A stretch of DNA of 32,000 bases from Candidatus Saccharimonadota bacterium (GCA_042852035.1 BAAFHK010000001.1:1-32000); one strand, 5' to 3'; shown: positions 1 to 32,000, counted from the first letter of the stretch. The notes: generated from the sequence alone by a model not told the origin. A program made the numbers and translations.

Positions 1-340
1 TGGAAGCATCTTTGGATAATGCGAATTGGAGCTCAACACTTCCAGATCTTTCAGGAAATAAAACTCTCTTCGTTCGTGTAAAGGCCCAAGGAATTAATCC
101 ACCAAGCCAAGCAGTAACTCTGAATTTCTCAACTAATCCTATCGCTCCACCTCCTCCATCAGTAACCGCTGACGATAATAACAACACGGTTGTCGGATAT
201 AATGCGACTACTATGGAAGCATCTTTGGATAATGCGAATTGGAGCTCAACACTTCCAGATCTTTCAGGAAATAAAACTCTCTTCGTTCGTGTAAAGGCCC
301 AAGGAATTAATCCACCAAGCCAAGCAGTAACTCTGAATTT
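1..340 (+). repeat. Intragenic direct repeat with 213-nt period; 127 nt are identical between copies
   Basis: nt 1-127 are identical base for base to nt 214-340. The copies diverge at 128 versus 341. Confidence 0.95.
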
Positions 341-650
341 TACTGTAAATAATACGATTTCTATTTCGGGCAGTGCTTTCGAGGCTCTTGCTGACATGAC
401 TATTTCTGATAATTATGGCCTCCCAATAACTCCTATTAATGCAGGATGAGTTACTGATACTCAAGGTCGAACCATTACCTATTCAACTACAGGATTACCT
501 CCTACTATTACTATTAACCCAAGTACCGGAGTGATAACTGGTTCTTATGATGCTGGACTTCTAACATCATTTACAGTGACCGTCACAGCATCCAATGGCA
601 TAAGTATCGTTGAAAAAACCTTTGTTTTGACAATCAGAGATGATGGATAA
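1..650 (+). CDS. 3' part of a repeat-rich secreted adhesin-like protein (5' end outside window); two tandem 71-aa domains followed by a He_PIG/'putative Ig'-like C-terminal domain
   Basis: Frame 3 is open from nt 3 to TAA 648-650 once TGA 447-449 is read as Gly. It encodes the repeated unit EASLDNANWSSTLPDLSGNKTLFVRVKAQGINPPSQAVTLNF. The C-terminal 'TTGLPPTITINPSTGVITGSYDAG..FTVTVTASNG' resembles the He_PIG motif (GLP..l.in..TG.isGt). Confidence 0.7.
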
Positions 651-671
651 AAAATCGAACTCAACTTTGAT

Positions 672-2408
672 TTAATTCGAAATAACGAATTTTTTCAAAG
701 TGGCTTTAATAGGAAAATTATATCCTATGTTATTTCCTATTATGAATTGAGAGGGTATTGTTGATAGGGTGAAGCTTATATTTGTTTGATTGCTATAGGT
801 TCATAAATTCGTAGTTACACCCAATCTGGTTTTGCAGAAGTAATTTCAAACCGGATTCACATCGCCAACGAAACAAATCCCGTTTTTTACAATAAATAGT
901 TTCTCAGTTCAGAATTCGAATATGTAATGCTTTGTTGCTGAGAGGGTTATTGGTTCCTTGATCTCTAGAGTGAGAGTCTTACCCGACAGAGCACTGTATC
1001 AGCCAAGCTTGGAGGATATCTCTGATCAGCTAAAACCTATATATTGTCCCGATGCTAGTATTTTAAACCCCGCTCAAGGATTGAGTGTTCAAGAGGAATT
1101 TTCTCTACAGAGGTGATCGGTTGGAAGTCTTCATGGGAATACAGAGAGCGTCATCAGATCAGGACATATTGTACTTGCCATATTAGTTATATCGGATAGA
1201 GCAGGCAGACTAAAATCTGCAGTTGCCAGTATGTTGTTTGGCATACAACGATAACGCTCGTTCCACCACTTATTTCATGCATCACAGAGGCTCATGGCTT
1301 CAAGATTTCCAGAAGATGTAAGATTTCAGTCCGCTAAAATATTCGGGGAGGCGGCGAGTATTTCATCTCGAAGAACAATTCTCTTCGATGGGGAGAGAAA
1401 TGATCCAGATATGGTTCAAAGTCCATACATATATTCGATATCTTTCCTGACATTCTTTCGTATCCAATTATTGCCATAATTAACATATTTTTCTATTCAT
1501 ACCGGACTTGGTTTTACTCAAGTACATCAGAGTGGATTGATAATATATAACCCCCCAACCTTAATATCATCAAGGCTTTCGAGTAGATGGGTAGATTGGT
1601 TCTTACATCGAACTGAGGCTCAACTTGAGAATCGGGAATCAACGAGATTCACAAATGTTTGAGATGATGATGGGGTCTTGAGGATTCACCATCAACTCCC
1701 TGTATTAGTGACAACTACTACATTCCCAGTAGAGCTTAAGTTAATACTCGTTCATCGTACTCATACAACGATAATTTCTGTTCAAACGTTATAGGATCCA
1801 GTTTCGGTAAGGATACGTCACCAGACTGACCCATTTGAGAGCATAGCAGAAGCAATAGTTGTGCCATCTGGAAGTGTACCAAGATCGAGAGATATAGTTG
1901 TATCCCCATCAAGTCTCAGAATTGAACTATCAGCAAATACGATAGTCATAGTGCATCCTGGAGGGGTCTTTACTATATCTCAGGCTTTCAGTACATTTCA
2001 TGTTGCTGTTAATCCTTGAGTATTATCGATACGATAATAGTCTGCTGGACAGTCTTGACTTTGTATTGTTGCGTAATCTGTAAGGAGAACATTAACGGTT
2101 CCACAGATTCTTTTTCCAGATGAGTCAATTCCTATATACTTCTGCCCTGATGAGCAACTTGAATCGTCTTTAAGATACCCGCTTGCCGATACGCCAGAAA
2201 GAGCGAGACTATTTGGGACTGTTCCATCACCTGCATAATTTCCGAGATCATTCGTACCAAGAAGTTTTGTAAAAACTTTTCCAATAGTACCATCTCAAAT
2301 CGGTATACGTGGAAAGGCAGGAGTATCCGGAAATAGTCCTGGAAATAGCGCAAGAACTGAACCACTAATAAGTCCAAGACCAAGCAAAAGGAGAATAATT
2401 TTTTTCAT
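672..2408 (-). CDS. Secreted FecR-domain protein (578 aa)
   Basis: A 579-codon minus-strand frame from ATG 2408 to TAA 672-674 has no TAA or TAG. It contains 25 in-frame TGA codons, so it is essentially invisible in the standard-code track. The N-terminal signal peptide is MKKIILLLLGLGLISGSVLA. The central 'GSVWGRILTETGSYNVGTEIIVVGVRGTSINL' fits the FecR-domain core (..f.V.T....vgVRGT.f.v). Confidence 0.75.
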
Positions 2409-2417
2409 GGGATAATA

Positions 2418-2711
2418 TTAACGACAAAGAACATTTCCACTCGTATCGTATCCGTAGATGCACTTTCCAGCACCACAAGATTGATTTGGGGCAACCTGTT
2501 GAAAGCTTGTAACATCAAGTCCTCAGAGTTTCGCGCTATTAGCAACGGTGCCATCTCCATTGTAACTGACAACCTGATCTGGGGTGATACCGAGAATTTT
2601 CGCAAGAAGCTCACCGAAGAGTCCAGAGCTTGCAGCATCGACTACTGCTATCGTTGAGAGAAATCCAATAGCCCAGATGACTCAGGAGAGAAATATTCTT
2701 AAAGCTTTCAT
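2418..2711 (-). CDS. Small secreted cysteine-containing protein (97 aa), paralogous to the N-terminal module of the downstream FecR-domain protein
   Basis: Runs from ATG 2711 to TAA 2418-2420 with 2 in-frame TGA. The signal/TM segment is MKALRIFLSGVIWAIGFLSTIAVVDA. 'YNGDGTVANSAKLGGLD...CGAGKCIYGYDTSGNVLC' parallels 'YAGDGTVPNSLALSGVS...CSSGQKYIGIDSSGKRIC' of the 672-2408 product. Its stop lies 9 nt before that gene's start. Confidence 0.6.
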
Positions 2712-2770
2712 AGTAACAAAAAAGAGTGAGATTTTTGCAGCAAATCGGGAAATCTGATATAGTCTATAGT

Positions 2771-4825
2771 ATGCAATTCGCTCGAAATCTCAAGCATATT
2801 TTTATCATCTGGTGCATCGCATTCCTTCTCATTCTCTTGTGAGTAAAGCTTTTTGATTCGACTTTTACGATTTCTTTTACGCATTATTTTGTGTATAGAA
2901 ACTCCTGAATCCAGAGTATCCTTTTTCCATATCATTTTTCTCCTTCGAAAGATATAGCTCTTATTAAGATTGATGATGCGAGTCTGAATGCTTATCAAGC
3001 ACAAAGAGGGCTAAAAATGCTTACGATACCAAAATCTCGATATGCAAATATAGTACGACTTCTTGAAAGTGCATCTGTAAAGGGAATTGCTTTTGATATT
3101 ATCTTTCAGAATGTTGATCCATCGGAGGATCTTTTCATTAAGACCCTCAGTGCTAATAAAAATATTGTAATCGCAAGTAGTTATAAAAAAAATGCAGTAT
3201 GTGTTGCAGGATCTTGATGATTATTTGAGGACTGTGAGGGAATACCGAGAAAGCCATATCAAAATATTCCATGGTGACTTATTAATCACTATGAACAAGG
3301 GGATCGCAGACCATTTGTTGTTGATGTGAGTGGGACTACTTATTCCGACTGGAAGACAGATACAAAAATATATACCCTTCCTCTTGCTCTTGCAAATATT
3401 CTCAATCTCCCTTATGAGAAGTCTCGATATGAAAATCAGGTTGGAAAGGATTTTCTTATCCCTTATTTTGGTTGAAGTAATACGTATGCTCAGACAACAT
3501 ATGGCTTTAATGATGTTCTCTCGATGCGTTCCGATGAACTTGAAGAGGCGTTTTCAGGAAAATACGTATTCATCTGAGAATGAGGATCTATTATTCACGA
3601 CCAATTTCTTTCCCCAGTTTCTTCGACCATGATGGATGGAGTTGACTCTCATGCTCATCTTTTTGATGGGATCCTCCAAGGAAGATATTTAGAAGAGTTT
3701 AGCATGCGAGATTTAGGCTATAAAATTCTTATAGGATTCATTGCTCTTTTTCTTATCGTATTTTCACTTTTTCTCCCAAAATATATTTCACCGATATTTG
3801 CCTTACTGAGTATACTTTTGTTAATAGTGGCTTCTCGGTATCTCTATTTCCATTATGGATACGTTTTTCAAATCGATCCACTCATTCTTGCATGAGGGGT
3901 ACTCACATTTCCATTAACCTTTATTTATCGATTCTTTGTTATTGATAAAGAGAAACGTCTTCTTACTTCCGCATTTTCACATTATGTTGATGGGAGAGTT
4001 GTTGAGAAGATTGCAGCTTCAGGAAAGCCAATAAATCTCTGATGAGAATCGAGACGATTAAGTATCCTCTTTTCCGATATTGCAGGATTTACGACACTTT
4101 CTGAGAAGCTTCCACCGACAGATCTTTTCCTTCTAATGTCTTCGTATCTCTCGAAGATGACAGAAATTCTGACTCAAAATGGTGGAACACTCGATAAATA
4201 TATATGAGATGCTGTGATGGGTTTTTATGGTGCTCCACTCGATGATGAGAGACATGCATATCATGCCTGTGAGACTGCACTTAAGATGCGAGAGATACTT
4301 CCACAATATAATCAAGAAATTGCCAAACAAGGCTTAGGCCCCATAGATTTCCGCGTTGGTATAGCAACTGGGGATGTGTTAGTCGGAAATATCTGATCAG
4401 CAAATCGATTTAATTACACGGTTCTTGGTGATACTGCGAATCTTGCTTCAAGACTTGAAAGTGCTTCAAAAGAGTATGGTACTCATATTATTGTTTCTGA
4501 ATCTACCTACTTAGATACAAAAGAATTTTTTTCATTTCGAAAACTTGATAAAATTGCTGTAAAGGGGAAGAATGAGGGGGTATGTATTTATGAACTTGTC
4601 GCCAAAGGAGACTCTCAAACTCTAGACGGAAGTCTATGATACTATAAGAATTACGAAGATGCTCTAGAGTTGTACTTTCAAGGAAAATATCTTGAAGCAG
4701 GAAAACTCTTTGAAAAATATGCGAGCGTTGATGTTGCATCAGCTCTTCTTGCTAGAAGATGTCTCGATATCCTTGAATGAAGACTCAAAATAACAGATGG
4801 TATTTATAGGATGGAATATAAATAA
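2771..4825 (+). CDS. Membrane-bound CHASE2 sensor fused to a class III adenylate/guanylate cyclase (684 aa)
   Basis: One frame joins track ORFs 3017-3217, 3629-3895 and 4214-4396 through in-frame TGAs and ends at TAA 4823-4825. CHASE2-type N-terminus: TM segment, then 'DIALIKIDDASL...IPKSRYANIVRLLESASVKGIAFDIIF', 'VFIGEGGSIIHD' and 'GVDSHAHLFDGIL'. TM helices follow. Cyclase core: 'RRLSILFSDIAGFTTLSE', 'KYIGDAVMGFYGAP', 'RVGIATGDVLVGNIGS..RFNYTVLGDTANLASRLES'. Confidence 0.88.
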
Positions 4826-4874: not shown

Positions 4875-7862
4875 TTATTTATGAGGAGATATATTTGAAA
4901 TTTGAGATATTTGCTTGAGGAAATCTCTCGAGTCCTTCCAATTTTTAACCTCTGTCTTAATTTTTGTGACACTGAGGAGTATCATATCGTGTTTTGCATC
5001 AAACCGTTCTAGAAATGCGCGAAGGGCTTGAGGGGGGGTTCCTTGGTGGAAATCAAAATGATAGTTTTGCCCCACTTTTGATACTTTTGCAACGTGATAT
5101 TGGCTGAGTATAAGTGAGGTTCGTATCATGAGAAAAAGGTTTTCCAATGGGGATTGTGCTCAATCATTCATAAGAAATGTCTCTTCAACTCGATCGAGAT
5201 CTTCAAGGCTCTCAATAGCTTCGATTTCTCGAAAGAATGAAAGTTTATCTATATCAGAATCAAAGAAATCTGTTGGTAAAACATATGAGAGATCAAGTTC
5301 GATCTTCGTTTTTTCTTGATTATTTTTCCCACTTCGAATAGCATCAATTTTCTCCTCGAGGAGCTGAAAGTAGAGTGAAATTCCAACTTCTTTTGATTTT
5401 CCGCTTTGTCTGAATCAGAGTATATCGCCAGTCCCACGTATCTGCATATCACGCATTGCTATTTCATAGCCACTTCCGAGATGAGAATTTTCAGAAAGAA
5501 CAATTAAACGTTCTCTTTCAATATCTGAAAGTTCGTACTTTCGGTACATAAGGTAGCATTTTCCGCTGATATCTTTTCGTCCCACCCTTCAGCGAATCTG
5601 ATGAAGTTGTGCGAGTCAGAATTCTTCTGCTTCCGAGACAATTATAGTATTAGCTCAAAGAAAATTCACACCGTTTTCAATAATAGTGGTTGTAAGAAGG
5701 ATATCGTATTTCCCGTGCTTAAAATCATGAATACGATTCTCTATTTCATCCGCAGGCATTTGTCCATGTGTGGTAATTATTTTCATTCATCTTCCTACAA
5801 AGAGTTCTTCTATCTCTTTTTCTATCATTGGCAATGCTCGGATTCTATTGTGAAGAATGATTGTCTGTCATCATCTCTCAAGTTCAAGCTCTATTGCATT
5901 TTTAATAATCGATTCATCCCAGCGCACTACGATTGTTTCGATGGGCTTTTTTCTTGGGGGTGGAGTAGTTAAGAGTGATATTTTTTTTAGACCAGAGAGT
6001 GCTAGATTGAGGCTTCTTGGGATAGGAGTTGCTGAGAGGGAGAGGATATCGATATGTGCTTTCATCTTTTTGAGGGCCTCCTTATGAGCCACGCCAAACC
6101 GATGCTCTTCATCGATGATAAGAAGTCCAAGTCTTCGGAAGTGAACATCCTCTGAAAGAAGTCGATGAGTTCCAACGATAACATCAATACTTCCATTCTT
6201 AAGTTGCTCAAGTATGGATTTCTGTTCTTTTTGAGTTGTGAGGCGAGTGAGAGATGCTATTTTTACTCAGAAAACACCAAGCCGTTCATCAAAAGTTTCT
6301 CTGTGTTCTTCTGCAAGAATGAGAAGAGGAGAAATCACAGCTACCTGCATCCCAGAAAGTATAGCCTTATAAATAGCGTTCATTGCTACTTCTGTCTTTC
6401 CGAATCCAACATCACCTGATATAAGGCGATCCATTGGAATCTCATCTTCCATGTCAGCAAAAATATCTTCGATAATTGACTTTTGATCTGGAGTATGAGT
6501 ATAGGGAAATGCTTTGAGAAATGTTTCTTCTTCTGTTGGAAATTTTTTGAAGGGAATGCGTTTTGTAAGCTTTCTCTTTGCTTCTGTTGAGAGTATTTCT
6601 TCTGCGATTATTTGCACCTCAGCATCAGTCTTTGAGAGAGTGCGCTCCCACTCCTTTCCTTCTAATCGAGACAGTTCGATATCGGATTCACCGACGTATT
6701 TTGTAATTCGACCGAGCTCAGTGAGGGGAAGGTATACTTTATCATTTCAGCTATATCAAATTACCATATACTCCCTTTCTATAAGGCCGATACGCTTCTT
6801 TTCGAGGTTTAAATACTTTCCGATACCATGCTCACGGTGTACGACCAAATCTCATTCCTTGAGTGCGAGAAGAAGATCGAGGTGTTTTATAGAAGATTTA
6901 CGAACACGATTTTCGATAAAAATCTTTCAGAAAATATCATCCCCAAGGAGAATGTAGGGAGTTAGGGCATCTTCTAATATAAAGCTTTCAAATTGATGTC
7001 GAGAAGACTCAACGTGAAATTTTTGGAGGTTGTTGAGCTCAAAAAATTCATTTAACTTTTTCTCATATCGACTCACAATTTTTTTTATACTTCAGGAGTA
7101 TGTTGAGAGAAATGATTTAAGGGCTTCCGTATTTTCGATTTCGGGTTTTTTTATGCTTTTCTTTTCACTTCAAGTCCTCTCTAGAGATGAATACTCAATA
7201 ATGATTTTGCTATTTTCGTGGAGCCAATCTCTTTCAGCAATAAACTCAGTAGCAATAAGTGCAAGTGGATACTGCGAAATATATTCTAACAATTCAAGAT
7301 TTACAGAATCTTGAAGTGAGGAATTATTGACTTCACTCCCTATGCGTGGAAAAATTACAGAATCATGATGGACATGGCTTTCTCAAGACATTTCCATTAT
7401 GCTTTCTATCTCATTATCAAAAAACTCAATCACCCACTCACTTTCCTTTGCCATTATCCGAATAATAGATCACTCTCTCTTATAGGTGCCGATTTCACCA
7501 CGATAGTCACTCTGAGTATAACCGATATTGAGAAGATTCTCGATAAGGAGATTTTGCTCTATTTTATCTCACCGATTGAGTCGTAAAGTATGGAGTCTTT
7601 GGATTCATTCAAGATTTCCCTGAATTCTGAAAATATCAGCAGGAATAAGAAAAATGTGCTTATGACTTTTTTGGATTCCAAATACTTCACTTGCATGCGT
7701 GAGTGTTTCTATTTCTTGTCAAAGAAGAGACGCTCAGAGATTTTCTATCTCTTTTGATGAAGAATGAGTTCCAACATAAAGAATCGTTTTATCCTTTCAT
7801 TTTACAAAATCCCTCAAGAGAAAGAGGGAGGCTGTAGTATGCGGAATTCACGAAAATATCAT
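4875..7862 (-). CDS. mfd: Transcription-repair coupling factor Mfd (995 aa)
   Basis: A single 996-codon frame links track fragments 4875-5147, 5871-6092 and 6267-6617 through TGA codons. Motifs: 'GDVGFGKTEVA' (Walker A), 'LLIIDEEHRFGV', 'SATPIPRSL', a UvrB-homology N-terminus ('GTYKREGSIIRI') and a TRCF C-terminal domain. ATG 7860-7862 lies 15 nt after the frr stop. The true stop is TAA 4875-4877. Confidence 0.93.
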
Positions 7863-7877: not shown

Positions 7878-8423
7878 CTAAACCTTCATTATCTCTGCTT
7901 CCTTTTGTTTCTCGATTTCATCAATATTTTTGATTGCTGAATCTACGGCTTTTTGGAGGTCGTTCTCATAACTTTTAATAACATCTTCGGAAAGTGTTTT
8001 TTCAGTCTTTGCCTGATCAAGCTTTTTCTTATAGTCTTGGCGAATATTGCGTATAGACACCTTTGCTTCCTCAGTCATTCGGCTTGAGAGTTTTACGAGG
8101 TCTCTTCTTCTTTCCTCAGTTAATGGAGGGATGTTAATAAGGATAGATTCACCATTGTTATTTGGATTAAGGCCAAGATTTGCATCAGTAATTCCTTTTT
8201 CAATATCGCGCATGATTGACTTATCCCAAGGCTGAATTGAAATTGTCTGAGCGTCAAGTGTCGATACTGCAGCTACATTTTTTAGGGGTTGACTACTTCA
8301 GTATGCCATGACAAACACACCTTCGACGATTGCGGGATTCGCTCTTCATGCCTGAAGCTTCGCAAGCTCATTCTTATAGTGTTCTATGGCTTTGTTAAGC
8401 TCTTGTTGAAGATTTGTGAGCAT
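7878..8423 (-). CDS. frr: Ribosome recycling factor (181 aa)
   Basis: Runs from ATG 8423 to TAG 7878-7880. N-terminus: 'MLTNLQQELNKAIEHYKNELAKLQA(G)RANPAIVEGVFVMAY(G)SSQPL...ISIQPWDKS'. The two TGAs (8346-8348 and 8298-8300) fall on the conserved GRA and YG glycines of Frr. The C-terminal 111 aa appear in the track as ORF 7878-8213. Confidence 0.93.
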
Positions 8424-8495: not shown

Positions 8496-8523
8496 TTGAC
8501 AAAGAATACTGATAACATATTAT
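8496..8523 (+). promoter_or_regulatory. Sigma70-like promoter for the 8561 gene
   Basis: TTGACA (8496-8501), a 16-nt spacer, then TATTAT (8518-8523). The -10 element overlaps the upstream ATG at 8522, which argues for the start at 8561. Confidence 0.5.
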
Positions 8524-8560
8524 GTTCAGGACTATTTATTTCCTATATTTTCCTCAATCT

Positions 8561-9403
8561 ATGCGATCTCTCACCATTAGTGTCGTCGCACTCGTCGTGC
8601 TTTCCCCAGTTGCGAGTGTTTTTGCTGCTGACGCAATAACCGCTGATCCAGCTGCAAATACTACACTTTCAGCTCCTACGAATGTTGCTCCATCTGCAGG
8701 TTCTTCGGCTTGAGAATATGCTTCAGTTGCGTGTAATTCAAACTCAGCTTTTGCAGTAAATAACTGTAACCAATGTTTTGATGGTGGATCAGTAAAAGTG
8801 GGACAAAGATTGACGGGACTTTTTGATAACTGGACAAATAACACACCGAATCCACTTACTGCATACAAGGATGAACAAAAAAATCCAAATATGGTAAAAT
8901 TTGGAAATTCAACTTGGACTACTACTCCTGCAAGTGAAGTTTCAGTATGGAAGACTCCATCAGATATAGTTTGGACGAGTGGAAGTGGAGGAAAGTCTTC
9001 ATTCATTCTTTCACCTGGAGGGAAGGTTCGCTTCATAGAAGCAGATTTAAATGCTGGATATACACTTGATAAGACTGATAAGAAGAATGGTGAACTCGTT
9101 GGTATCCTCAGATTCCCTGTGGTATCTCATGTTACAAATACTCAGACAGCAACTGAGGGTGCAGCAGATACTCACTATGAATGTGTCGCATATAAGCTCG
9201 ATGCACCAGCTCCTACTCCAACCCCAACTCCAACAGTTGTTACTCCTACTCCAACCCCAACTCCAACAACCCCAACTCCAACCCCAGCTCCAAATCCTGG
9301 AAATATGACTCAGACTGAGACGGGTCCAGAAACACTTCTCCTTATTGCTGCAGCATTCTTTATCGCCTTTGGCATGATGATGACTCTTAGAAAGAGAAGT
9401 TAA
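8561..9403 (+). CDS. Secreted surface protein with a Pro/Thr linker and a C-terminal sorting-signal-like tail (280 aa)
   Basis: The frame joins track ORFs 8522-8713 and 8798-9403 through TGA 8711-8713. The signal peptide from ATG 8561 is MRSLTISVVALVVLSPVASVFAADA. An alternative in-frame ATG exists at 8522. A PT-rich linker is followed by 'TETGPETLLLIAAAFFIAFGMMMTLRKRS', then TAA 9401-9403. Confidence 0.75.
9204..9298 (+). repeat. Coding Pro/Thr low-complexity linker (ACTCCAACCCCAACTCCAACA-type repeats)
   Basis: Encodes APAPTPTPTPTVVTPTPTPTPTTPTPTPAPNP. The 21-mer actccaaccccaactccaaca occurs twice. Confidence 0.85.
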
Positions 9404-9509: not shown

Positions 9510-9609
9510 TAAATGAATTTGTTTTAATGGCATAAAATATGTGAGATTTTTGCAAATATTAGCGAAATATGCTAACGTAGTCTGGTAATATATCTTTAAA
9601 TTATTCCTT

Positions 9610-13065: not shown

Positions 13066-13365
13066 ATGAAACATATACATATTACATTATTTATTGCAGG
13101 GGTTCTTCTTGTTACCGGATGTACCCAGAATGCAGATAAAAATGCTTCACCAAACAAAGAGGTTCCACCTGTAGAAACTGTAACAAACACATCTTCACTC
13201 CAAGGAAATGTTACTCCAGAAAAAACTGAACTTCACGGAGCTGAAATCGCAGGGAAAACCCAAGACTTCCCAGCTCCAAGTGATGATGGTACTCCTCATA
13301 CTCCAATTCCAGTAAGTGCTCCCATCGTTGGCGAATCCCAATCCTTTCCTCCCTCAGTAAAATAA
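13066..13365 (+). CDS. Small lipoprotein (99 aa)
   Basis: MKHIHITLFIAGVLLVTGC carries a lipobox (VTGC). The remainder is Pro/Thr/Ser-rich and probably disordered. The ORF is intact in either genetic code. Confidence 0.75.
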   Translation: MKHIHITLFIAGVLLVTGCTQNADKNASPNKEVPPVETVTNTSSLQGNVTPEKTELHGAEIAGKTQDFPAPSDDGTPHTPIPVSAPIVGESQSFPPSVK

Positions 13366-18866: not shown

Positions 18867-19403
18867 TTATTGAACTTGACCAAGTACCTTTTCTACCGCA
18901 TTTTGAACACTTTCCGTTTCTTTATGAACATACACTATAGTTCAGGATTTTTTTCAAAGTTCATAATATCATGCTTGTTTGAGGTGGGGTCAGAGGGCCT
19001 CCCTTTTTTTCATATCAATAAGAGCACTGAGACATGTTTGCACTCAAGGAATGCTATTTCTTCTTGTAATCGCTAAGAGAGCACTCTGAATTTCAATTAC
19101 TCTTCATTTCCTGCTTGCATGAGGATTGAGATTGATGCCCTGAGGGGGAACAATAATAATCCGATTTTGATGAAAAATCTCAGGAACTAAGAAGCTAAAA
19201 CTTCCTGCATCACCATTCATATCCCAAGTGAGTAGCTTCTGTTCTCCAGTAAAAACTTTTCCATATTGCCCATCTGGATTTAAAAGTTCATGAACTCTTC
19301 GATTTGCTTGATTTTCGCTCCCATCCCAGATTTCTCAAAATCCATCTTTTATCCTACGGGGAAGAAAGGGGCGTTCTCAAATGGCATTGTATTGAATTTG
19401 CAT
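18867..19403 (-). CDS. Orphan protein (178 aa) co-oriented downstream of uvrB
   Basis: Runs from ATG 19403 to TAA 18867-18869. It has 8 in-frame TGA and no TAA or TAG, checked triplet by triplet. It starts 37 nt after the uvrB stop. No family is recognised. Confidence 0.55.
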
Positions 19404-21505: not shown

Positions 21506-22471
21506 ATGCTTCTTTCCATCTTTTTTCTACTTGCCTGACTTATTCTCCTTACGGTTGGGGGGAACCTTCTCGTTGATGGTTCGATCTCTCTTGCAAAAAA
21601 ATGGAAAATTTCAGAAGCAGTTATTGGACTTACTATTGTTGCTATAGGCACAAGTATGCCAGAACTTATAGTCTCCTTACTAGCATCAATTTCTGGAAAT
21701 ACGGATATTGCAATAGGGAATGTATTAGGTTCAAATATTGCAAATATTTTTCTTATTCTCTGAATTACAGCTATTGTGGCCCCGATTAACCTCTCTGCCA
21801 CGACTCGATTTTTTGATCTTCCTGTGAATATTTTAGTATCAATCTTGCTTGGGGTTATCGTCAGTGATATATTCCTGGATGGATTACATCTAAATCTTAT
21901 TGGACGAATTGACGGAATTATTCTCCTCTCTTTTGCTGTTATCTATATTCTTTATTCACTCAAGCATAACAACTTTATTCCAAGTGAGACGGATGAAGTT
22001 GAACGAATACTATCTTCTTGGAAGGCAATTCTATGGGTATTGGGTGGAATATGAGTACTCTTTATTGGATGAAAAATATTGGTCACGGGAGCGGTTGATC
22101 TCGCGAAAATGGTAGGAATTTCTGAAAGCATTATTGGTCTTACAATCGTTGCTATAGGTACGAGCACTCCAGAAATGATTACCTCAATTATCGCTGCAAA
22201 ACGATGAAAGCCCGACATTGCTGTCGGGAATATCGTTGGTTCAAATATTATGAACATTCTCGTTATACTTTGAGTTTCTGCGTTTATAGCGCCACTTCCA
22301 TTTAAGCTCGCATCATTTATTGATCTATTTATGGCATTTATAGCACCAGTAGTAGTGCTTGTGCTTTCGCTTGTATGGACGAGAAACAAACTTGAAAGAA
22401 GAGATGGGATTACTCTTGTTATTATGTATCTCATCTATCTTGGCTATTTGATTTCAGAAGAAATACTTTAA
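21506..22471 (+). CDS. CaCA-family Ca2+/cation antiporter (YrbG-like, 321 aa)
   Basis: Runs from ATG 21506 to TAA 22469-22471. Two alpha-repeats are present: 'GLTIVAIGTSMPELIVS...AIGNVLGSNIANIFLIL(G)' and 'GLTIVAIGTSTPEMITS...AVGNIVGSNIMNILVIL(G)'. It is hydrophobic throughout. Confidence 0.88.
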
Positions 22472-23058
22472 GATAAAACTTCTGGAATCTTCGGTAGTGA
22501 TTTTCATCGTCTTGGACTTGATCGAGAGATTCTTCTCTTATAGAAAATATTTCCTCCACTCATTCACTCAGTTCGAAACTCAGTTACATAAGTGTCTCGA
22601 ATGCTCGGATCAAGTTTATATACTATTTCACTTGCTTCTCGGAAGTTATATCATTCTTGCATAAGTCTAAATAATTCTCGTTGCACAATAACTCCTCTTA
22701 CACTAATTCTTTGAAATGGTGGGACTATCGATGATGCTGTGAGGATTTCTGATGCGCCATTTTTGAGTATTTGGGTATCACTGAGGAGTATTGGCTCGTG
22801 ATGTCATTCCTCATATCTTTCTCCCATAAGGTGAGGAAGTTTTTGTCATACGAGCTCCTCCTCATCACAGAGTGATGCGAGGATTTGTGCGAATTTTACT
22901 TCGTCTCGTATTCCCTCATTGCTTCTCGCGTGAGGGAATTTCATACGAATAAGTTCATGTATTCGAAGGGAAGTTCTCCAGACAGTTGTGCTGGTCTGTG
23001 ATTCTATAAGAGAACGAGCCTCACAAAGATGTAAAAAGAGATCGTTATCTGAAAGCAT
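22468..23058 (-). CDS. Orphan protein (196 aa), last gene of the bcp operon
   Basis: Runs from ATG 23058 to TAA 22468-22470. It extends track ORF 22846-23058 through in-frame TGAs, with no TAA or TAG (checked). It starts 5 nt after the bcp stop. Confidence 0.55.
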
Positions 23059-23063: not shown

Positions 23064-23465
23064 CTACTGAATTTCTTTTAATAATTTTTCAGCATGCCCC
23101 TTTGCTTTTACATTTCTCCATTCTTGCAGGATTTCTCCATTTTCATCCAGAAGAAAAGTTGATCGAATAACGCCTATATACACTTTTCCATAATTCTTTT
23201 TTTCTCCTATTACACCGAATTGTTCATGGAGTTCTCCACTTGTATCTGATATGAGCTCGATGCCGAGATTACATTTATCGCGAAATTTCGCATGAGATAT
23301 TTCAGAGTCCTTTGATACCCCGATGATATGTATCCCGAGCGCCTTGAACTCATCTTTTAGTCTTGTAAAATCTTGAGCCTCAAGAGTGCATCAAGGAGTA
23401 TCATCTTTCGGATAGAAATAGAGAAGCGTCTTTTTGTTCCCTTGTAAGATTTTCGTAAGATCCAT
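23064..23465 (-). CDS. bcp: Peroxiredoxin, Bcp/thiol peroxidase type (133 aa)
   Basis: Sequence: 'MDLTKILQGNKKTLLYFYPKDDTP(G)CTLEAQDF...GVSKDS...HAKF'. The active-site PxDxTPGCT motif has its glycine encoded by TGA 23391-23393. The gene is absent from the standard-code track. Confidence 0.85.
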
Positions 23466-23485
23466 AGTTTTTTGGTTTTGGAAGA

Positions 23486-24169
23486 TTAAAGTGGTCAGTA
23501 ACTTCTTTTTCATCGGGACTTTTTATCACTTTCAGCAAGAGCTCTATGTATCAGGTCTTCGATATGAGATTGTAACTCTCATACTCTTTCTCATATTCAT
23601 GTGGAAACTTGGAGGGCTTGATGCATAGCAATCAAAACTTCTTCAGGTGGAAGGAGGGAGCGTAAGTATGCTAGGGCCCTTTTTCTGGTTGCTTCCATCT
23701 GCTCTTCGGTGAGTCTATTTATTTTTCCAGCATTTGGGTCATACTCAAGAAGTAATGGGGCATCTTCTTTTGGAGAGAAGTAGAGTTCAGTAAGTTCTGG
23801 ATTGTGCTTGAGTACTTGGTCCATGAACTTCTGACTTCCTCGACTGAATATGGGGTGTTTATTAGTATCATTTCAATCATCGGGAGGGAATTCTTCATAC
23901 AGGGTTCCTCGAGCCATTGCTTCTGCTATATCTTCATTAAGTGTCACGAAAGCTTGAGTAAAGAGAATGCTTCTGATGGAAGAAGAGTGTAATTTTCGTA
24001 TCCAATCGCTTGTTATCTTTTTTGCCTCTTTATCGTTATCGACTCTTGTTCGTTCTTCATGAATCGACCAGAGTCTCATCATAAGTTTTTCCTCACGTCC
24101 TTTTCTCCGAGCTAAAAGTTTTTCTCGTTGATCATAGATGTCTCAATTTTCACGAAAACTTTTTCCCAT
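23486..24169 (-). CDS. Orphan protein (227 aa), first gene of the bcp operon
   Basis: The frame joins track ORFs 23597-23824 and 23873-24082. ATG 24169 is the first start after the in-frame TAG at 24185. The stop is TAA 23486-23488, 20 nt before the bcp start. Confidence 0.6.
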
Positions 24170-24231: not shown

Positions 24232-24750
24232 TTAGGCAAAAGAGTTTCCTTCTTCGTCTATTTTTCTCTCTCATTCATCTGTATCAAGATGAATTTCATG
24301 AGATATGAGACGAATGCCTTTGATTCGGTATCTCATGTGCTCATCGTCCATCTCATATTCGAGTACAAAGTCATATGGTTCATCTGAATTACTCGAGAAG
24401 ATATTTCGTAATTTTGCAGCCTCACTTTTTCCCATTCGATGTTCATAAAGATAGCTAAAATCCTCAAATAGAGGGTGCATAATTTCTTTCGTAGCTCGAT
24501 CGAGGGTGTAGGTGAGATTTCCTGATGGTACATCAAGGTTTCTGAGAAGACTAAAAATATGAGCCTCCCTTCTTTCGCATTCAATAACCATCTTTTGTAA
24601 TTCGAGTGCTTTTTTGTGAGAATTTTTGAGCTCTTTGAGAGATTCTTGTGCTATAAATCGTATTGCTTCGATAGTGCCTCATCCTTTCGACACTTCGATA
24701 AAGGATGCAGCGAGATAGGGATAGATCGAAGGAGTATTATTGAGAGGCAT
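24232..24750 (-). CDS. Orphan protein (172 aa)
   Basis: Extends track ORF 24271-24591 in both directions. ATG 24750 follows an in-frame TAA, and the stop is TAA 24232-24234. Confidence 0.55.
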
Positions 24751-24760: not shown

Positions 24761-25270
24761 CTACTTTTGAGCGACAGGGGAGCCTTGAGGTTGAGTTCAC
24801 TTTTTTCCTCAAAGAGTGTCCAAAAGTGCTGCGGCTCGACCTTGAGCCCGAGCAAGGGCTTCTGCTTTTTCTCGGGAAGCGGCTTGTTCTTGTTGGAGTC
24901 TTGCGGCATCTATACGTGCTTGATTTTCTTGTTCAGCTCGATTTGCAGCATCTGTACGTGCCTGTGTCATAGTTCCATCGAGGGAAGCGGCTCGTTCACT
25001 AGCACTTACGAGGGGCGCTCAAAAGAGTTTTTCAGCGAGTCTTCACTTTCCCGTTCGGATATAATCTTCAGCATCCCTACGGATGCCATCCGCCCAAAGT
25101 TTTTTCCCAGCATATCTCAGAGTGCTATCATTATTTTTCCCATCAATAATTGCTTTTAATTTTGCCCTCATGAGTGTGAGATCACTTTTTGTTTCAGTTC
25201 AGAGCTTTCCAAGGGCTTCAGTAACCTTAGGATCAACGAGGAGATCGCTTAACCCATCATTTTGTGACAT
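24761..25270 (-). CDS. Orphan Ala/Gln-rich coiled-coil protein (169 aa)
   Basis: Runs from ATG 25270 to TAG 24761-24763. It has 5 in-frame TGA and no TAA or TAG (checked). It encodes '...TQARTDAANRAEQENQARIDAARLQQEQAASREKAEALARAQGRAAA...'. The overlapping plus-strand track ORFs are antisense artefacts. Confidence 0.55.
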
Positions 25271-25294
25271 GACTTCGGTTCACATATTGTAGAA

Positions 25295-25585
25295 TTAGAA
25301 ATTATAATTTAATACCAGACCTTCTTTCTCTTCATTTTCTTTTTCACTGTTTTCATACTGAGTTATTTTAGCAAGGGTTTTTCTTGAGAACTGTGACATA
25401 TCATGGAAGTATTCCTCCACATATTTTTGCTTCTCGATGAGCGCCTCATCATCGAGGCTATCGAGCTCGAGGTAGATTGCTTTGAGTCACTTTGTGTCAT
25501 TCACCTCAAATATTTCTCCAATAATCTCTGTAAGGTGGACGATATATTTCTGGCGTGCTTTCGAATCAACAAATCTTTTTTGCAT
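25295..25585 (-). CDS. Small orphan protein (96 aa), paralog of the 26011-26310 product
   Basis: Runs from ATG 25585 to TAA 25295-25297. 'ARQKYIVHLTEIIGEIFEVNDTKGLKAIYLELDSLDDEALIEKQKYVEEYF' aligns with 'ARKNFIIGITEIILQIFDISSEERRNIIINELSALDDATLLEKKDSIDDYF'. Confidence 0.6.
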
Positions 25586-25646
25586 AGCGTGAGTTCATAA
25601 AAGGAATAAATCTTCTATAATTATTCCATAACTCTTTATTTCCGTC

Positions 25647-25676
25647 AAAAAAAGAGGTGAATTCACCTCTTTTTTT
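25647..25676. terminator. Bidirectional rho-independent terminator
   Basis: Perfect palindrome agaggtgaattcacctct (25653-25670), flanked by an A-run and a T-run. Confidence 0.8.
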
Positions 25677-25989
25677 ATGCTTGTTTTGAATTTTTTCAGA
25701 AATTGAGCTCTGCCACCAATTGCTTCAGGGCAACATCGATAGCCTTCTGTCTTTGCGTCTGGACCCGCTCAGCAAATCCTCTAAATGCCAGAGCAACCTG
25801 TGAAGAATCCGTATGCTCTATAGCAGCAGTAATCGCAGAGTTTAACATCTCTTGAGCGTAAGGTGTTGCTTCATTGTGGAGTTTCTCGAGAAAATCTCTC
25901 ACGTCTCGAGTGTCAAGAACGGGGTGAGCTTGAGCGAGTCTATCGACCTGCTCACGAGATCAGAGTTGTTCCGGTGAATATTGAGTCAT
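25675..25989 (-). CDS. Small helical orphan protein (104 aa)
   Basis: Runs from ATG 25989. It extends track ORF 25696-25902 at both ends. The standard-code stop TGA 25696-25698 is read through to TAA 25675-25677, which abuts the terminator. Confidence 0.55.
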
Positions 25990-26010: not shown

Positions 26011-26310
26011 TTATGCGAGGATGATGCCTTCTAGAGATTTATCGAGATCTTTTTGCTCCTCCTTTTCGAGGTAGAGATGTTCCATACGTAGAAGTTGGTA
26101 GAAGTATGACTTATTGATTTCATTCGCCTTTAGGAAATAGTCATCGATGGAATCTTTCTTTTCCAGAAGAGTAGCATCATCAAGGGCTGAGAGTTCATTT
26201 ATTATGATATTTCGACGCTCTTCACTTGAGATATCAAAAATCTGGAGAATAATCTCAGTAATCCCGATGATGAAATTTTTTCGTGCTTCTTCGGTAAAAA
26301 GTGCTTCCAT
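26011..26310 (-). CDS. Small orphan protein (99 aa), paralog of the 25295-25585 product
   Basis: Corresponds to track ORF 26011-26319. ATG 26310 is preferred over the TTG at 26319 because it aligns with the paralog's N-terminus. Confidence 0.6.
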   Translation of the reverse strand: MEALFTEEARKNFIIGITEIILQIFDISSEERRNIIINELSALDDATLLEKKDSIDDYFLKANEINKSYFYQLLRMEHLYLEKEEQKDLDKSLEGIILA

Positions 26311-26408
26311 GAGAATCAAAAACTATACGGTGCTAGAGTAACAGATAGAGCCTATTCTGTCAACTTCTTTGTCTCGTAGTTTCTTTAAAATGCGGTAAAA
26401 ATATAGAA

Positions 26409-26582: not shown

Positions 26583-28469
26583 ATGTGAAAAATTATCGGT
26601 ATCGATCTCGGAACCACCAACTCTTGTGTTGCCTTCATGGAAGGTGGACAGGCAAAAGTTATCCCCAATACTGAAGGGGGAAATACAACTCCATCAGTTG
26701 TTGCTCTTAAAAAAGATGGTGAAACTATCGTTGGTATGCCAGCTCGCCGCCAATCAGTGACGAATCCTACGAAGACCATCTACTCAGCGAAGCGATTTAT
26801 CGGACGCAAATTCTCAGAAGTTCAAGATGAAATCAAGAATGTTCCATTTAAGGTGACTGAAGGACCAGATGGAGGAGCGATGATCGAATGGGACGGGAAG
26901 CCTGTACGTCCAGAAGAAATCTCAGCAAAAGTCCTCGAAAAGCTCAAGCATGATGCTGAGAAATATCTCGGACAGAAAGTAACAGAAGCGGTTATCACGG
27001 TTCCTGCTTACTTCAATGATGCAGAGCGTCAGGCAACTATCAATGCTGGAAAAATCGCAGGACTCGATGTGAAGCGTATCGTCAACGAACCAACCGCTGC
27101 TGCCCTCGCCTATGGTGCAGATAAAAATAAAGATCAAAAAGTAGCTGTCTACGACTTCGGTGGAGGAACATTCGATATCTCTATCCTCGAAATCGGAGCA
27201 GAAGGAACCTTCGAAGTGCTCGCGACCAATGGTGATACTCACCTCGGTGGTGATGACTTCGATCAGAAGATCTTCGAATACGTGATGAGCGAATTCCAGA
27301 AAGATACTGGTATCGATCTCCGTAAGGATCCTATGGCAGTACAGCGTGTCCGCTCTGCTTCTGAAAAGGCAAAAATCGAACTCTCAAGTGCGACTTCTAC
27401 TGAGATCAACGAACCATTCATTGCGATGAATGATGGAGTGCCATCAAACCTCAATATGACGATTACTCGTGCGAAGTTCGAGGAGCTCATCGCCGACCTC
27501 GTAGAGCGCTCTATGGAGCCATGTCGAAAGGTGATGAAGGATGCAGGACTCCAAGCGAACCAGATTCACGAAGTAATCCTCGTCGGAGGTTCGACTCGTG
27601 TCCCGATGATTAAGCAAAAGGTGGAACAATTCTTCGGAAAGAAACCCAATGAATCCGTCCACCCAGACGAAGCAGTTGCTCTCGGAGCTGGTATCCAGGC
27701 AGGTATCATCCAGGGTGATGTGAAGGATGTTCTCCTCCTCGATGTCACTCCACTCTCACTCGGTATCGAGACTCTCGGAGGTGTGATGACTCGCATGATC
27801 GAGCGAAACACGACTATCCCAACCAGTAAATCTCAGGTCTACTCAACCGCTGCTGATAACCAAGACAGTGTAGAAATCCACATCCTCCAAGGTGAGCGTG
27901 AGATGGCGAATGATAATAAGTCTCTCGGACGATTCATCCTCTCGGGTATCGCTGCTGCTCCACGTGGTATCCCACAGATCGAGGTGACTCTTGATATCGA
28001 TGCTTCAGGAGTCCTGCATGTCACTGCGAAGGATAAGGGAACCGGCAAAGAACAAAAAATCACCGTCCAAGGCTCAACCGGAATGAGTGATGATGAAATC
28101 GATAAACTCGTAAAGGAAGCTGAAGCAAACCGCGAAGCCGATAAGAAGAAAAAGGAAGCTATCGAAGTTCGCAATCACGCTGACTCCCTCGTCTACCAAT
28201 CAGGCAAAACTCTCGAAGAGAACAAAGGAAAATATGAAGAAGCCGACGGCAAGACTGCAGAAAGTGCGCTCGAGAGACTGAAGCAAGTCCTCGCTGACTC
28301 GAACTCAAGCAAAGAAGACATCGAGGAAGCCACTAAGGTCCTCAATGATGTCATGATGAAGATTGGCCAAGCCATCTACTCACATGCGGGTGACCCTGAG
28401 AAAAAGGACGAAGCAGGAGAGAAGAAGAATGATGATGGAAGTGTCGAGGCTGAGGTAGAGGAGAAGTAA
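26583..28469 (+). CDS. dnaK: Chaperone DnaK/Hsp70 (628 aa)
   Basis: ATG 26583 then TGA 26586 gives M(G)[15 protein letters not shown], the canonical DnaK N-terminus. The rest is track ORF 26637-28469, with 'DLGGGTFD' and 'VILVGGSTR'. Stops are tandem: TAA 28467-28469 then TAG. Confidence 0.97.
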
Positions 28470-28474: not shown

Positions 28475-28506
28475 ATCCCCACTAATTTTGAGTGGGGATT
28501 TTTTTA
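28475..28506 (+). terminator. Rho-independent terminator of dnaK
   Basis: Stem atccccact / agtggggat (28475-28483 and 28491-28499), followed by a T-run. Confidence 0.8.
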
Positions 28507-28518
28507 AATTTTTTAAAT

Positions 28519-29733
28519 ATGGCTCGTAAATTTTCAGAAATTCTTATCACAGAAGATTTATGAATAATTGATCTTATTCATTCAAAAATTCAAAAATTCA
28601 GGGATAGATTTTCATCAGAGAATGATCCAGCAGCAAATGCACTTAATAATGCTATGGCGTTTATTGAGGTTAAACAAGTTCGAAATATTGATCAAGCTAC
28701 TAAGGATATATTTGAATTAATACAAAAAAACCCGAATGCTATTATGACAGATTCGATGGAATGACTTTGGGATTACTGTGGAGAAAGATATAGTAGTTTA
28801 TATAAAAGTATTCGATGATTTAATGAATCCTGACCATGAGTACATGATATACTTATATCTAATGAATGGCAGAATTTCGAGAAGAATATAAAGTCGCAAT
28901 TTCATGAGTTTGATAATTACCAAAATAGATATTCAGAAAAATTTGAGAAGATTAATGAATTAGAAAGTAGAACATATACTTTACTCTCGCTTGTAAAATC
29001 GGCAATACTAGAATCAAAATGAATATCAGAGCAAGTTAAATTACCTGATTGATTTGAGGAAGCTAATAAAATTGCTGATTCACTATTAAAAAATAAGAGC
29101 CTCATTGAATCAGGTATAGAGTCTAGTAAATCTATTCAAAATTTTAATGTAAATAATATTGATGAGGCATTAAAAAATGTGTGAGAAATGTTTTATAATA
29201 AAGACACTTATATACCATTTCAGAATCCAAAATGGACATGGAAGGATTTTATGAAATTTATTAAATTCAATATTTGAGAGGCTATCGTTGTTTTTTCTGA
29301 GGATTTCTTCAAATCTCCAAAGTGGTGGCTTCTCTTGGGAATGGTACCATTGATTACGATATTTTCTGTATTATGGTCAGAGTATAATTTTATTTTAATT
29401 TCTAAAGATGTAGACTTAAAGAAATATCAAGATTACTGGCAAATACTAGTTTCTACACATATAATTTTCGTATCATTTGTTTGATACATTGTTGTATTTT
29501 GCTTTTGAAATTATAGAAAGCTAGAAGCAAGAATGGAGAGTTATAAATTTAGATCTATTCTTACAAAGTCTTTTTGATATCTTATAAAATCAGCTGATGA
29601 TGAACAAAAAAAGATCTTATACCCAAAAGCCTTGGACGCTATTTTTAAAGATTTACCTGAAGCAAATATAGGACAGGATTTAAATATTAACTTACCAGTT
29701 ACAGAAATCATAAAATGATTAAATTCTAAATAA
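28519..29733 (+). CDS. AT-rich orphan membrane protein (404 aa): roughly 250-aa soluble N-terminal region and two predicted TM helices
   Basis: A 405-codon frame with 13 in-frame TGA and no TAA or TAG, checked triplet by triplet, despite roughly 25-30% GC. TM segments: 'WWLLLGMVPLITIFSVLW' and 'ILVSTHIIFVSFVGYIVVFCF'. The gene is entirely absent from the standard-code track. Confidence 0.7.
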
Positions 29734-29760
29734 AAATCCCTCCATTTCGGAGGTTTTTTT
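29732..29760 (+). terminator. Rho-independent terminator
   Basis: Stem cctcc / ggagg (29739-29743 and 29749-29753) followed by T7. It shares the 13-mer aaaaatccctcca with the terminator at 30434. Confidence 0.6.
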
Positions 29761-29775
29761 ATTGTGATAATAATA

Positions 29776-29804
29776 TTGACTATTCATAATTAAATGTAAT
29801 ATAT
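29776..29804 (+). promoter_or_regulatory. Promoter-like element for the 29825 gene
   Basis: TTGACT (29776-29781) followed by AT-rich -10 candidates (taatat 29797-29802 or atatat 29799-29804). The exact -10 is ambiguous. Confidence 0.35.
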
Positions 29805-29824
29805 ACAGATACTATTTCTTCCAT

Positions 29825-30385
29825 ATGCCTACCGTAGAACATCGAGCTCTCATAGGAGTCGAAACAGACCCAATCATCGTCCAAGAAGCAACTGATGGTG
29901 CAAATAAGACGATGATACGATTTGGACGACTCGTCGAGCTTATAGTGGGATTGTATCGTGAAGAGCGATTTGAGTATGTTGATGCGAAACCTCATTATGT
30001 ACTTACCTCTCAGGGTGATAGGCTTCTTAGGGGTGATTTGGTAGATGTATATTGACCGAATACTGTTGAATTCATGCATATCTTAGCAAGAAAGCAGCTC
30101 ATAAAAGAAGGAAAATTGAGAGGGCAGATTGGGTATGAAGGCGTCCATCTTCCTCCAAAGTTTTCCAAGCTCACCTATGATGAAATCGTAGAAACCCTTC
30201 TTTGGTATGCTGAGTACTCGAGTGATGAAGAACGAGAAGTTATTATGGAGTTTCTCCTCACTGATGGTCGATGTGGTGGATCATATAGGGAATTCAATGA
30301 GAAAAATAGAAGAGTCCAAACAATCCTGACCCAGGTTTCGAATTCGCAAGTTGGGCAAAAATTCCCTAAGGATGATTCCTTATAA
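29825..30385 (+). CDS. Orphan protein (186 aa)
   Basis: Joins track ORFs 29825-30055 and 30074-30385 (same frame) through TGA 30053-30055, ending at TAA 30383-30385. Confidence 0.6.
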
Positions 30386-30433
30386 AATCTAAAATTTCTC
30401 GTAGACGGAGAAATAAGAAAACGTGGTAACTCT

Positions 30434-30462
30434 AAAAATCCCTCCACATCGGAGGGATTTTT
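30434..30462. terminator. Bidirectional terminator shared by convergent genes
   Basis: Stem atccctcc / ggagggat (30438-30445 and 30451-30458), with an A-run upstream and a T-run downstream. Confidence 0.75.
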
Positions 30463-31315
30463 AATAAGTTGGATTTGGTTGCCAGACTCACTCGGGTTCA
30501 TTGGGATTTGATTTATTTCAAAAAGCCTTTTTCTTATAGACAGGTATATCTCAGAGATGAGCAAGTATTTTTCCACGAACGACTCATTCATTTTCAGTTG
30601 GGATGACATTCGCATAACGCTTCATGAGTTCTGGAGGGAGTGTTATCCTCGACATCACCGATACTTGCACCCCGATCATTGTTGGTTGAATTTGCATGCC
30701 TACCACATCCATACCATGTTCTACTGGCAGCTCAGGAAATGGTTCTATAGGATCAATATGTCATTCAAATATAAGCTGACACTGAGTTTCTCCATTTTCT
30801 CCTGGGACAAACTTCGGTACCGATATAAGTTTTCTCTCCTCTGTTTCTATATCGTTTTGTGCGAGGAGTGAGAGGAGTGATTTCCAGTGTTGGAACTTCG
30901 TCATAAGTTCAGCTGCAATAATCCTATCCTGATCATGAGGAGAAAGGGTATTTGCAAGAGTAGTGTTTACAAGTTTTCGAGTGGTAAATCTTTGAAAAAG
31001 AGAGGGTTCTTTAATGACGACATGGTAGAGGAAACCTCACACCATTGAGAGTGACCTTTTTCGAATAGAGTCTTTTAGGCTTCGTGCTTCGAGGCTTTCA
31101 CTTGGGTCATCTTTAAGGATTGCCCACTCTTCAGGGGCTACTTTTTCTATCCATTTGACTGAGAGTTCTTTTGGTGACTGCCATACAGCACTATTGGTGA
31201 GACTAAATAGAACATCATATGTTCGAGAATATCATTTCCGAATACGGCCCCAAAGCCTATGAGCAGCCTCAGCATAGATTTCATGTTTTTTTTCTAATTC
31301 CGTTGGTGCATTCAT
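30461..31315 (-). CDS. Orphan protein (284 aa)
   Basis: Runs from ATG 31315 to TAA 30461-30463. It has in-frame TGAs only, with no TAA or TAG (checked triplet by triplet). It is absent from the standard-code track. Track ORF 30175-30615 is in a different frame and runs through the terminator. Confidence 0.6.
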
Positions 31316-31478
31316 GAGACTTTTAAATAATTAGTGATAGATTCTTCAAGAAGATGTGAGGTCTAGAGTATCTCCTTCATATGGACTCAATTCTAAGAAT
31401 GTTTCGAATTCATAATTTTTATATATTAATAATTATATCATCATGTCAAATTTATTTTCATGAATATTGCTATGAGAT

Positions 31479-32000
31479 TTATTCTTCTCATTTTGGGATA
31501 TATCATCCTCAGAGATTTTTTGCATCGAGTCTTGGAACTACTATGGTTCGGAAAATAAATTCGAGTCGACGTTCTGGAGTATTGTATTTCTCAACTTGTA
31601 GAAGTGGGAATCATCGTAGAATTGCAGCGTCAATCCACTCGAGGAATTCAGCATAACTTGATAGGAGTATCCGAGATTTTTCTCTATTTGTTCCGTATCG
31701 GGCAATCTGAATCTGCGCCTCCTTCACTTCCCCTTCACTGTGAGCAAGTTCGGTTACTGCAAGGATTGCGAGAAAGAGTAGAGGAGGGGTATAGTTTTCA
31801 TCTCGAACAAATGAAGTGGCACTTACGTGGAGCTCAAGAAGTGGGTCAATAATTTCATAGTCATAGCCATGCTCTGAGTCAGGGCTTGACATAGGGATAG
31901 CTTCTGGAAAAAATCCTCTTTCATTCGAGAGAAGGTCCTGCTCAACATTATCAAAGTCAGCGGGATCTTCATCTTCCGTCTCTAGGATATACTGATGTTT
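31479..32000 (-). CDS. Orphan protein, 5' end beyond the window (or starting at ATG 31892)
   Basis: The frame of track ORF 31611-31892 stays open upstream to nt 32000. Downstream it continues through TGAs to TAA 31479-31481. Confidence 0.5.

Follow-up and report, generated by a model that had tools for sequence, protein, structure and literature searches.

UGA is read as glycine in the Gracilibacteria and Absconditabacteria, a reassignment that has been textbook knowledge since 2013-2014. The corresponding translation table 25, the Candidate Division SR1/Gracilibacteria code, reportedly goes back to Campbell et al. 2013, Rinke et al. 2013 and Hanke et al. 2014. In genetic code 4, used by the Mycoplasmatales and several insect endosymbionts, the same codon specifies tryptophan. 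Here we analyse the first 32,000 nucleotides of contig BAAFHK010000001.1, hereafter the window (32 kb, GC content 39.6%), in which TGA is the commonest of the three stop trinucleotides across all frames. The sequence evidence indicates that the window is almost certainly about the first 32 kb of a contig of the metagenome-assembled genome (MAG) HHAS10, and that it uses code 25, with UGA as a fifth glycine codon and UAA and UAG as the only stops.

For the closest described systems, the decoding machinery has been characterized in part. A tRNA(UCA) with the glycine identity elements G1:C72, C2:G71, G3:C70 and U73 has been described (PMC8629427), and prfB, the gene for release factor 2 (RF2), was undetected in all BD1-5 genomes, whereas prfA, encoding release factor 1 (RF1), was retained (PMC6851277). 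In a BD1-5 bacterium, glycine at UGA was demonstrated by proteomics (Hanke et al. 2014, PMC4032931, as cited by PMC6851277). Absconditabacteria and some Gracilibacteria additionally read CGA and CGG as tryptophan beside UGA as glycine (Shulgina & Eddy 2021, PMC8629427). The window shares with the table 25 organisms UGA as glycine, UAA and UAG as the only stops and a small-genome host from the candidate phyla radiation (CPR), and there is no difference in the code itself; its GC content falls inside the range of 0.21-0.53 given for these clades (PMC8629427). HHAS10 differs from the other hosts in its position in class JAEDAM01, split from Gracilibacteria proper.

The assignment to HHAS10 is based on exact protein matches. 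Translated with table 25, the Mfd protein of the window matches GAB0174125.1 (HHAS10_00040, Candidatus Altimarinota bacterium) at every one of 995 residues, with Gly at 23 of 23 TGA codons, and this protein is encoded on the 750,307-bp contig of the MAG. Altogether, 15 table 25 translations are residue-identical to deposited HHAS10 proteins (range GAB0174122-GAB0174145); besides Mfd, these are DnaK, UvrB, Frr, CaCA, HHAS10_00010, _00020, _00080, _00100, _00130, _00150, _00190, _00220, _00230 and _00240. The first annotated gene, HHAS10_00010, lies at 672-2408, which puts the start of the window at the end of the contig or close to it.

HHAS10 has not been cultured and belongs to the Patescibacteria/CPR, with a position in the Gracilibacteria-type class JAEDAM01 and the NCBI phylum Candidatus Altimarinota. 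That phylum stands under taxid 363464, which is listed for Gracilibacteria in PMC8629427, and the nearest homologues carry the Gracilibacteria label. The MAG comprises 1.3 Mb, is 97.7% complete and derives from activated sludge (PMC9530719); it was assigned to GTDB class JAEDAM01, and fluorescence in situ hybridization located the cells inside Zoogloea clusters or attached to Zoogloea (PMC11393006). The Gracilibacteria/Absconditabacteria-like placement proposed in the preliminary description, which had added small genomes and a possibly host-associated lifestyle, is thereby borne out. The reassignment itself has already been published for this exact MAG: Codetta v2.0 gave UGA as Gly in JAEDAM01 including HHAS10 (Fujii et al. 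2024, PMC11393006), and the deposited record uses table 25, so that nothing scientifically new is added here on this point. According to the same study, UGA is a stop codon in those MAGs of its tree that belong to the GTDB class Gracilibacteria, and Gly in those of JAEDAM01. The former statement departs from how Gracilibacteria are usually described and hinges on the GTDB class boundaries.

Reading TGA as sense restores the gene structure of the window, as the preliminary description had maintained. In a greedy call of open reading frames (ORFs), table 11 produced 63 ORFs with a coding density of 0.646 and a mean length of 109 residues, whereas with TGA as sense 27 ORFs were obtained with a density of 0.961, a mean of 380 residues and a maximum of 1813. 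This effect was not reproduced when TAG (density 0.735) or TAA (0.821) was made sense instead. Within the 9,463 codons of the 21 gene models, TGA occurs in frame 167 times, and five extra small genes add 11 more, giving a total of at least 178 for the window; TGA accounts for 22% of all glycine codons, and no sizeable gene lacks it. None of the models ends at TGA (TAA 16, TAG 5), and each of six ORFs beyond them is terminated by TAA. The C-termini fit those of homologues: Frr ends like the chloroplast ribosome recycling factor (RRF), and UvrB within a few residues of the C-termini of UvrBs in the PDB. Of nine TGA codons that had been singled out beforehand, eight lie in frame exactly where they had been placed, namely those in DnaK, Frr (two), the class III cyclase (two), Bcp, UvrB and the first CaCA repeat, 21761-21763 (+). 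The ninth, in the second CaCA repeat, was off by one: 22270-22272 reads TTG, and the actual TGA is found one base on, at 22271-22273.

To identify the amino acid, we aligned the orthologues of a syntenic relative (JGI 3300081562, contig Ga0654615_0000138, loci L001 and L002) at the codon level; its proteins are 54-94% identical to those of the window. The 96 aligned TGA codons of the window face TGA 23 times, GGA 23, GGT 15, GGG 7, GGC 5 and other codons 23 times, but never TGG. GGN thus stands opposite TGA at 50 sites (binomial p = 3e-40 among the 73 non-identical partners). In the reverse direction, the TGA codons of the relative face TGA 23 times, GGN 30 times and TGG not once, and 40 of the 43 TGG codons of the window are opposite TGG and none is opposite TGA. 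Since TGA and GGN replace each other between these relatives and TGA and TGG never do, TGA acts as a fifth glycine codon.

Homologues from standard-code organisms lead to the same residue. With TGA translated as X, alignments of the conserved proteins DnaK, UvrB, Mfd, Frr, Bcp, the cyclase and CaCA to homologues of solved structure in the PDB pass through the TGA positions in a single frame and at full length. In the best PDB homologue of each protein, 15 of the 28 TGA sites carry Gly, and Trp or Cys occurs at none; for the first 27 sites, before DnaK was added, the binomial test yields p = 2.4e-10 (15/27, with an assumed glycine background of 8%). In Mfd, Gly occupies 7 of 12 TGA sites in the Thermus protein and 6 of 11 in that of E. 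coli; in Frr, two of two in Thermus RRF and one of two in chloroplast RRF. Gly is further present at two to four of the four sites in class III cyclases, the KYI-G-D and GNI-G-S positions among them, at three of six sites in the CaCA protein NCX_Mj, at one of two in UvrB and at the single site of Bcp. The preliminary description had called the affected glycines invariant, which overstates the case at a few sites. Residue 2 of DnaK is Ala in the best PDB match and Gly in E. coli DnaK, and therefore is not invariant (codon 2 is TGA in the syntenic relative as well), and NCX_Mj has Ala at the position of the second CaCA repeat.

From 119 aligned database homologues of Mfd we used the 20 most distant for column statistics. 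In the TGA columns, 172 of 419 non-gap cells (41%) contain Gly, compared with 48-79% in the columns under GGA, GGT, GGG and GGC. A Codetta-style log-odds calculation over 22 Mfd TGA columns gave +18.8 nats for Gly, -14.8 for Asn and -17.7 for Trp; the same calculation recovered Trp for TGG and Arg for CGG. In all five Pfam families tested, glycine at TGA scores higher than tryptophan: Na_Ca_ex gains 25.2 bits (216.1 versus 190.9), CHASE2 10.7 (85.6 versus 74.9), Guanylate_cyc 10.2 (101.5 versus 91.3), RRF 8.0 (199.7 versus 191.7) and AhpC-TSA 2.0. The TGA columns thus favour glycine, and neither tryptophan nor random residues.

On the basis of its lineage, we propose that HHAS10 would decode UGA with a dedicated tRNA-Gly(UCA) carrying the glycyl-tRNA synthetase (GlyRS) identity set G1:C72, C2:G71, G3:C70 and U73. 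Loss of RF2 (prfB) would remove competition for UGA, and RF1 (prfA) would have been kept to serve UAA and UAG. We scanned a genome collection with a strict structural pattern comprising these identity elements as well as U8, A14, U33-UCA-A37 and the T-loop. It returned 31 matches, and three of five loci checked with ARAGORN hold a tRNA(UCA), one each in a Gracilibacteria MAG, a MAG of the Patescibacteria group and one labelled 'uncultured bacterium'. ARAGORN labels all three genes 'SeC', and the 3' CCA is encoded in two of them. Neither the named conserved genes of the window nor the hypotheticals scanned include an identifiable release-factor gene, some models being outside that scan. An Rfam search of the window gave zero matches, and ARAGORN found no tRNA gene in 38 kb of the syntenic relative.

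Several observations weigh against code 25 with this machinery. ARAGORN detected no tRNA gene in the whole 32-kb window, and HHAS10 is not among the matches to the strict tRNA pattern, either because the pattern is too strict or because the genome is outside the collection. In the relative, non-glycine codons stand opposite about 24% of the TGA sites, and in distant homologues about half of the sites fall in variable columns; across the comparisons, columns that are variable rather than conserved glycines hold about one-quarter to one-half of the TGA sites. Owing to these non-glycine partners and variable columns, single sites are not each diagnostic.

A seeming exception is codon 107 of UvrB, which lies opposite a conserved Asp in the YIEK motif region of PDB UvrBs. 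In 120 clade relatives this column contains G 87 times, D 19, W 10 and A 4 times, while codon 353 is occupied by W in 42 of the 120. The relatives closest at UvrB have G at codon 107 yet W at codon 353. The W at codon 353 identifies these sequences as table 4 translations, whose G at codon 107 must therefore be encoded by GGN. Codon 107 is a lineage-specific Asp-to-Gly change in the Gracilibacteria-type clade and not evidence against glycine.

Usage of TGA is strikingly uneven among the genes. Its share of the glycine codons is 2% in DnaK (1/55) and 6% in UvrB (2/35), and reaches 45-76% in several lineage-specific genes, with a maximum in HHAS10_00220 (13 of 17 glycine codons, the remaining four being GGN). 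Moreover, TGA sites are kept as Gly in the relative less often than GGN sites (73/96, 76%, versus 375/429, 87%; Fisher p = 0.0065). Both observations would agree with a form of code 25 in which UGA decoding is ambiguous or costly, that is, UGA is read mainly as glycine but less efficiently or accurately, so that highly expressed or constrained genes avoid it; ambiguity between UGA and UGG via U34 wobble was considered possible in PMC8629427. However, gene GC content and evolutionary rate are confounding factors, the pattern comes from a sample of 21 genes and from sequence data, and we regard costly decoding as conceivable but doubtful. Per-gene GC content and TGA share are themselves only weakly correlated, short of significance (rho = -0.38, p = 0.085, 21 genes). 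We therefore only tentatively suggest that UGA may not be a fully equivalent glycine codon, being nearly excluded from highly expressed or constrained genes, dominant in fast-evolving lineage-specific genes and located at less conserved sites. A decoding cost may lie behind the lower conservation of TGA sites and their uneven share, or GC content and evolutionary rate alone may account for them.

Genetic code 4, with TGA as tryptophan, is a rival reading of the same codon. It shares with code 25 the reassigned codon and the ORF structure, and in both the loss of RF2 is presumed to have made the change possible, so that ORF structure alone does not separate tables 4 and 25; the difference lies in the amino acid, which is Gly here. 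In favour of code 4, W occurs at TGA columns in many database homologues of this clade. These residues are found in public predictions from Logan, ENA and JGI for relatives of Mfd (P0002-P0100), UvrB (P0121-P0240) and HHAS10_00220 (P0274-P0280). As they stand on Gly columns of standard-code homologues, they must be regarded as TGA codons mistranslated with table 4. Tryptophan would furthermore reach 2.4% of all residues, versus 0.68% from TGG alone, whereas Gly amounts to 7.9% with TGA included. Together with the absence of Trp from the PDB partners, the codon pairing with the relative in both directions, the Mfd log-odds and the Pfam scores, this makes code 4 very improbable, and we reject it.

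The standard code, under which TGA would be a stop and the genes would represent pseudogene fragments, sequencing errors or cases of selenocysteine insertion or programmed readthrough, still covers 65% of the window with its 63 ORFs but is so improbable as to be negligible, because seven conserved proteins align in frame and at full length across TGA, 23 TGA positions are kept as TGA in the relative, the essential genes dnaK, frr and uvrB would all be broken, and the in-frame TGA codons, none of them opposite Cys, are far too many for selenocysteine or readthrough. Selenocysteine recoding is expected to produce rare TGA codons opposite Cys or Sec in selenoprotein families, accompanied by a selenocysteine insertion sequence (SECIS) element. 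It was rejected, as TGA is spread across nearly all genes and the window has no Rfam match.

UGA as glycine in the window is not accompanied by the arginine-to-tryptophan changes of the extended code of the related Absconditabacteria. The window contains 109 CGA and 10 CGG codons. All six aligned CGG codons are opposite Arg codons in the relative, CGA is mostly opposite CGN or AGA, and Arg is the top residue at CGA and CGG columns in the distant Mfd homologues. Although the numbers are small, with only 10 CGG codons, both behave as arginine, and CGA/CGG as Trp was rejected.

The genes of the window and the three tRNA(UCA) genes from other genomes are compiled in Table 1. The partial ORF at the window start contains a perfect 127-nt direct repeat (1-127 and 214-340) with a period of 213 nt, or 71 codons, and the HHAS10 contig was probably broken within this repeat. 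Internal repeats also occur in the 1805-residue surface protein, with periods of 921 nt (15362/16283 and 15748/16669) and 198 nt (13971/14169). TGA is retained at the equal repeat position, being the last codon of both 13971-14019 and 14169-14217. The orthologous region of the relative matches CLIPPER (PF01345). For the 1134-residue protein we found neither a Pfam match nor an orthologue in the syntenic relative.

HHAS10_00220 likewise lacks an orthologue in the syntenic relative; its GC content is 27.8% versus 39.6% for the window. Among 5.8 billion proteins it has seven homologues, none of them from NCBI, and all seven resemble table 4 translations (17-25 W each). Upstream of dnaK, the small genes at 25295-25666 (-) and 26011-26319 (-), with HHAS10_00190 between them, have a motif in common (LTEIIGEIF...LDSLDDEALIEK versus ITEIILQIF...LSALDDATLLEK) and for this reason look like paralogues; the starts chosen for both differ from those of the deposited proteins. 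Finally, a 41-nt segment occurs at 2719-2759 and 9534-9574, immediately preceding the cyclase gene and the gene for the 1134-residue protein, respectively. The copies are 73% identical, with GTGAGATTTTTGCA common to both, and may either form a common regulatory motif or match by chance.

Table 1. Genes of the 32-kb window, with their in-frame TGA codons and identical deposited proteins, and tRNA(UCA) genes found in other genomes.
Feature	Position	Strand	In-frame TGA	Deposited protein	Remarks
Ig-like (He_PIG) surface protein, partial at window start	3-650	+	1		Absent from deposited annotation
HHAS10_00010, hypothetical secreted, FecR-like domain	672-2408	-	24	GAB0174122.1	TAA stop
HHAS10_00020, small hypothetical	2418-2711	-	2	GAB0174123.1	
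CHASE2 and class III adenylate/guanylate cyclase	2771-4825	+	15		Including 4205-4207 (KYI-G-DAVM) and 4394-4396 (GNI-G-S)
Mfd, transcription-repair coupling factor, HHAS10_00040	4875-7862	-	23	GAB0174125.1	
Frr, ribosome recycling factor	7878-8423	-	2	GAB0174126.1	8346-8348 and 8298-8300; TAG stop
Hypothetical secreted/anchored protein	8522-9403	+	1		Pro/Thr-rich linker
Hypothetical, 1134 residues	9610-13014	+	22		
HHAS10_00080, small lipoprotein-like	13066-13365	+	0	GAB0174129.1	
Cys-rich repeat surface protein, 1805 residues	13390-18807	+	22		
HHAS10_00100, hypothetical	18867-19403	-	8	GAB0174131.1	
UvrB	19441-21402	-	2	GAB0174132.1	20344-20346 (MYA-G-DRARK) and 21082-21084 (codon 107)
CaCA (Na+/Ca2+ exchanger family)	21506-22471	+	6	GAB0174133.1	21536, 21761, 22052, 22070, 22205 and 22271
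HHAS10_00130, hypothetical	22468-23058	-	5	GAB0174134.1	
Bcp/peroxiredoxin	23064-23513	-	1		23391-23393 (TP-G-CT)
HHAS10_00150, hypothetical	23486-24169	-	7	GAB0174136.1	
Hypothetical	24232-24750	-	2		
Hypothetical	24761-25285	-	6		
Small hypothetical	25295-25585/25666	-			Start unsettled
HHAS10_00190, small hypothetical	25675-25989	-			
Small hypothetical	26011-26319	-			
DnaK	26583-28469	+	1	GAB0174142.1	Codon 2 (26586-26588)
HHAS10_00220, hypothetical membrane protein	28519-29733	+	13		4 GGN; GC 27.8%
HHAS10_00230, hypothetical	29825-30385	+	1	GAB0174144.1	
HHAS10_00240, hypothetical	30461-31315	-	7	GAB0174145.1	
Partial ORF, runs past window end	31479-32000	-	4		
tRNA(UCA), glycine identity set, other genome	L013, 4485-4561	+			ARAGORN
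tRNA(UCA), glycine identity set, other genome	L025, 507-580	-			ARAGORN
tRNA(UCA), glycine identity set, other genome	L022, 2420-2493	+			ARAGORN

The choice of code governs every annotation in the window. Table 11 shatters the genes into pieces of about 109 residues, and table 4 would put false tryptophans on conserved glycines of the window proteins, an error that is already visible in many public gene calls of relatives. If UGA is indeed not fully equivalent to the other glycine codons, its distribution would suggest either that decoding by tRNA-Gly(UCA) is costly or ambiguous, or that a mutational flux from GGA to TGA is restrained only by selection.

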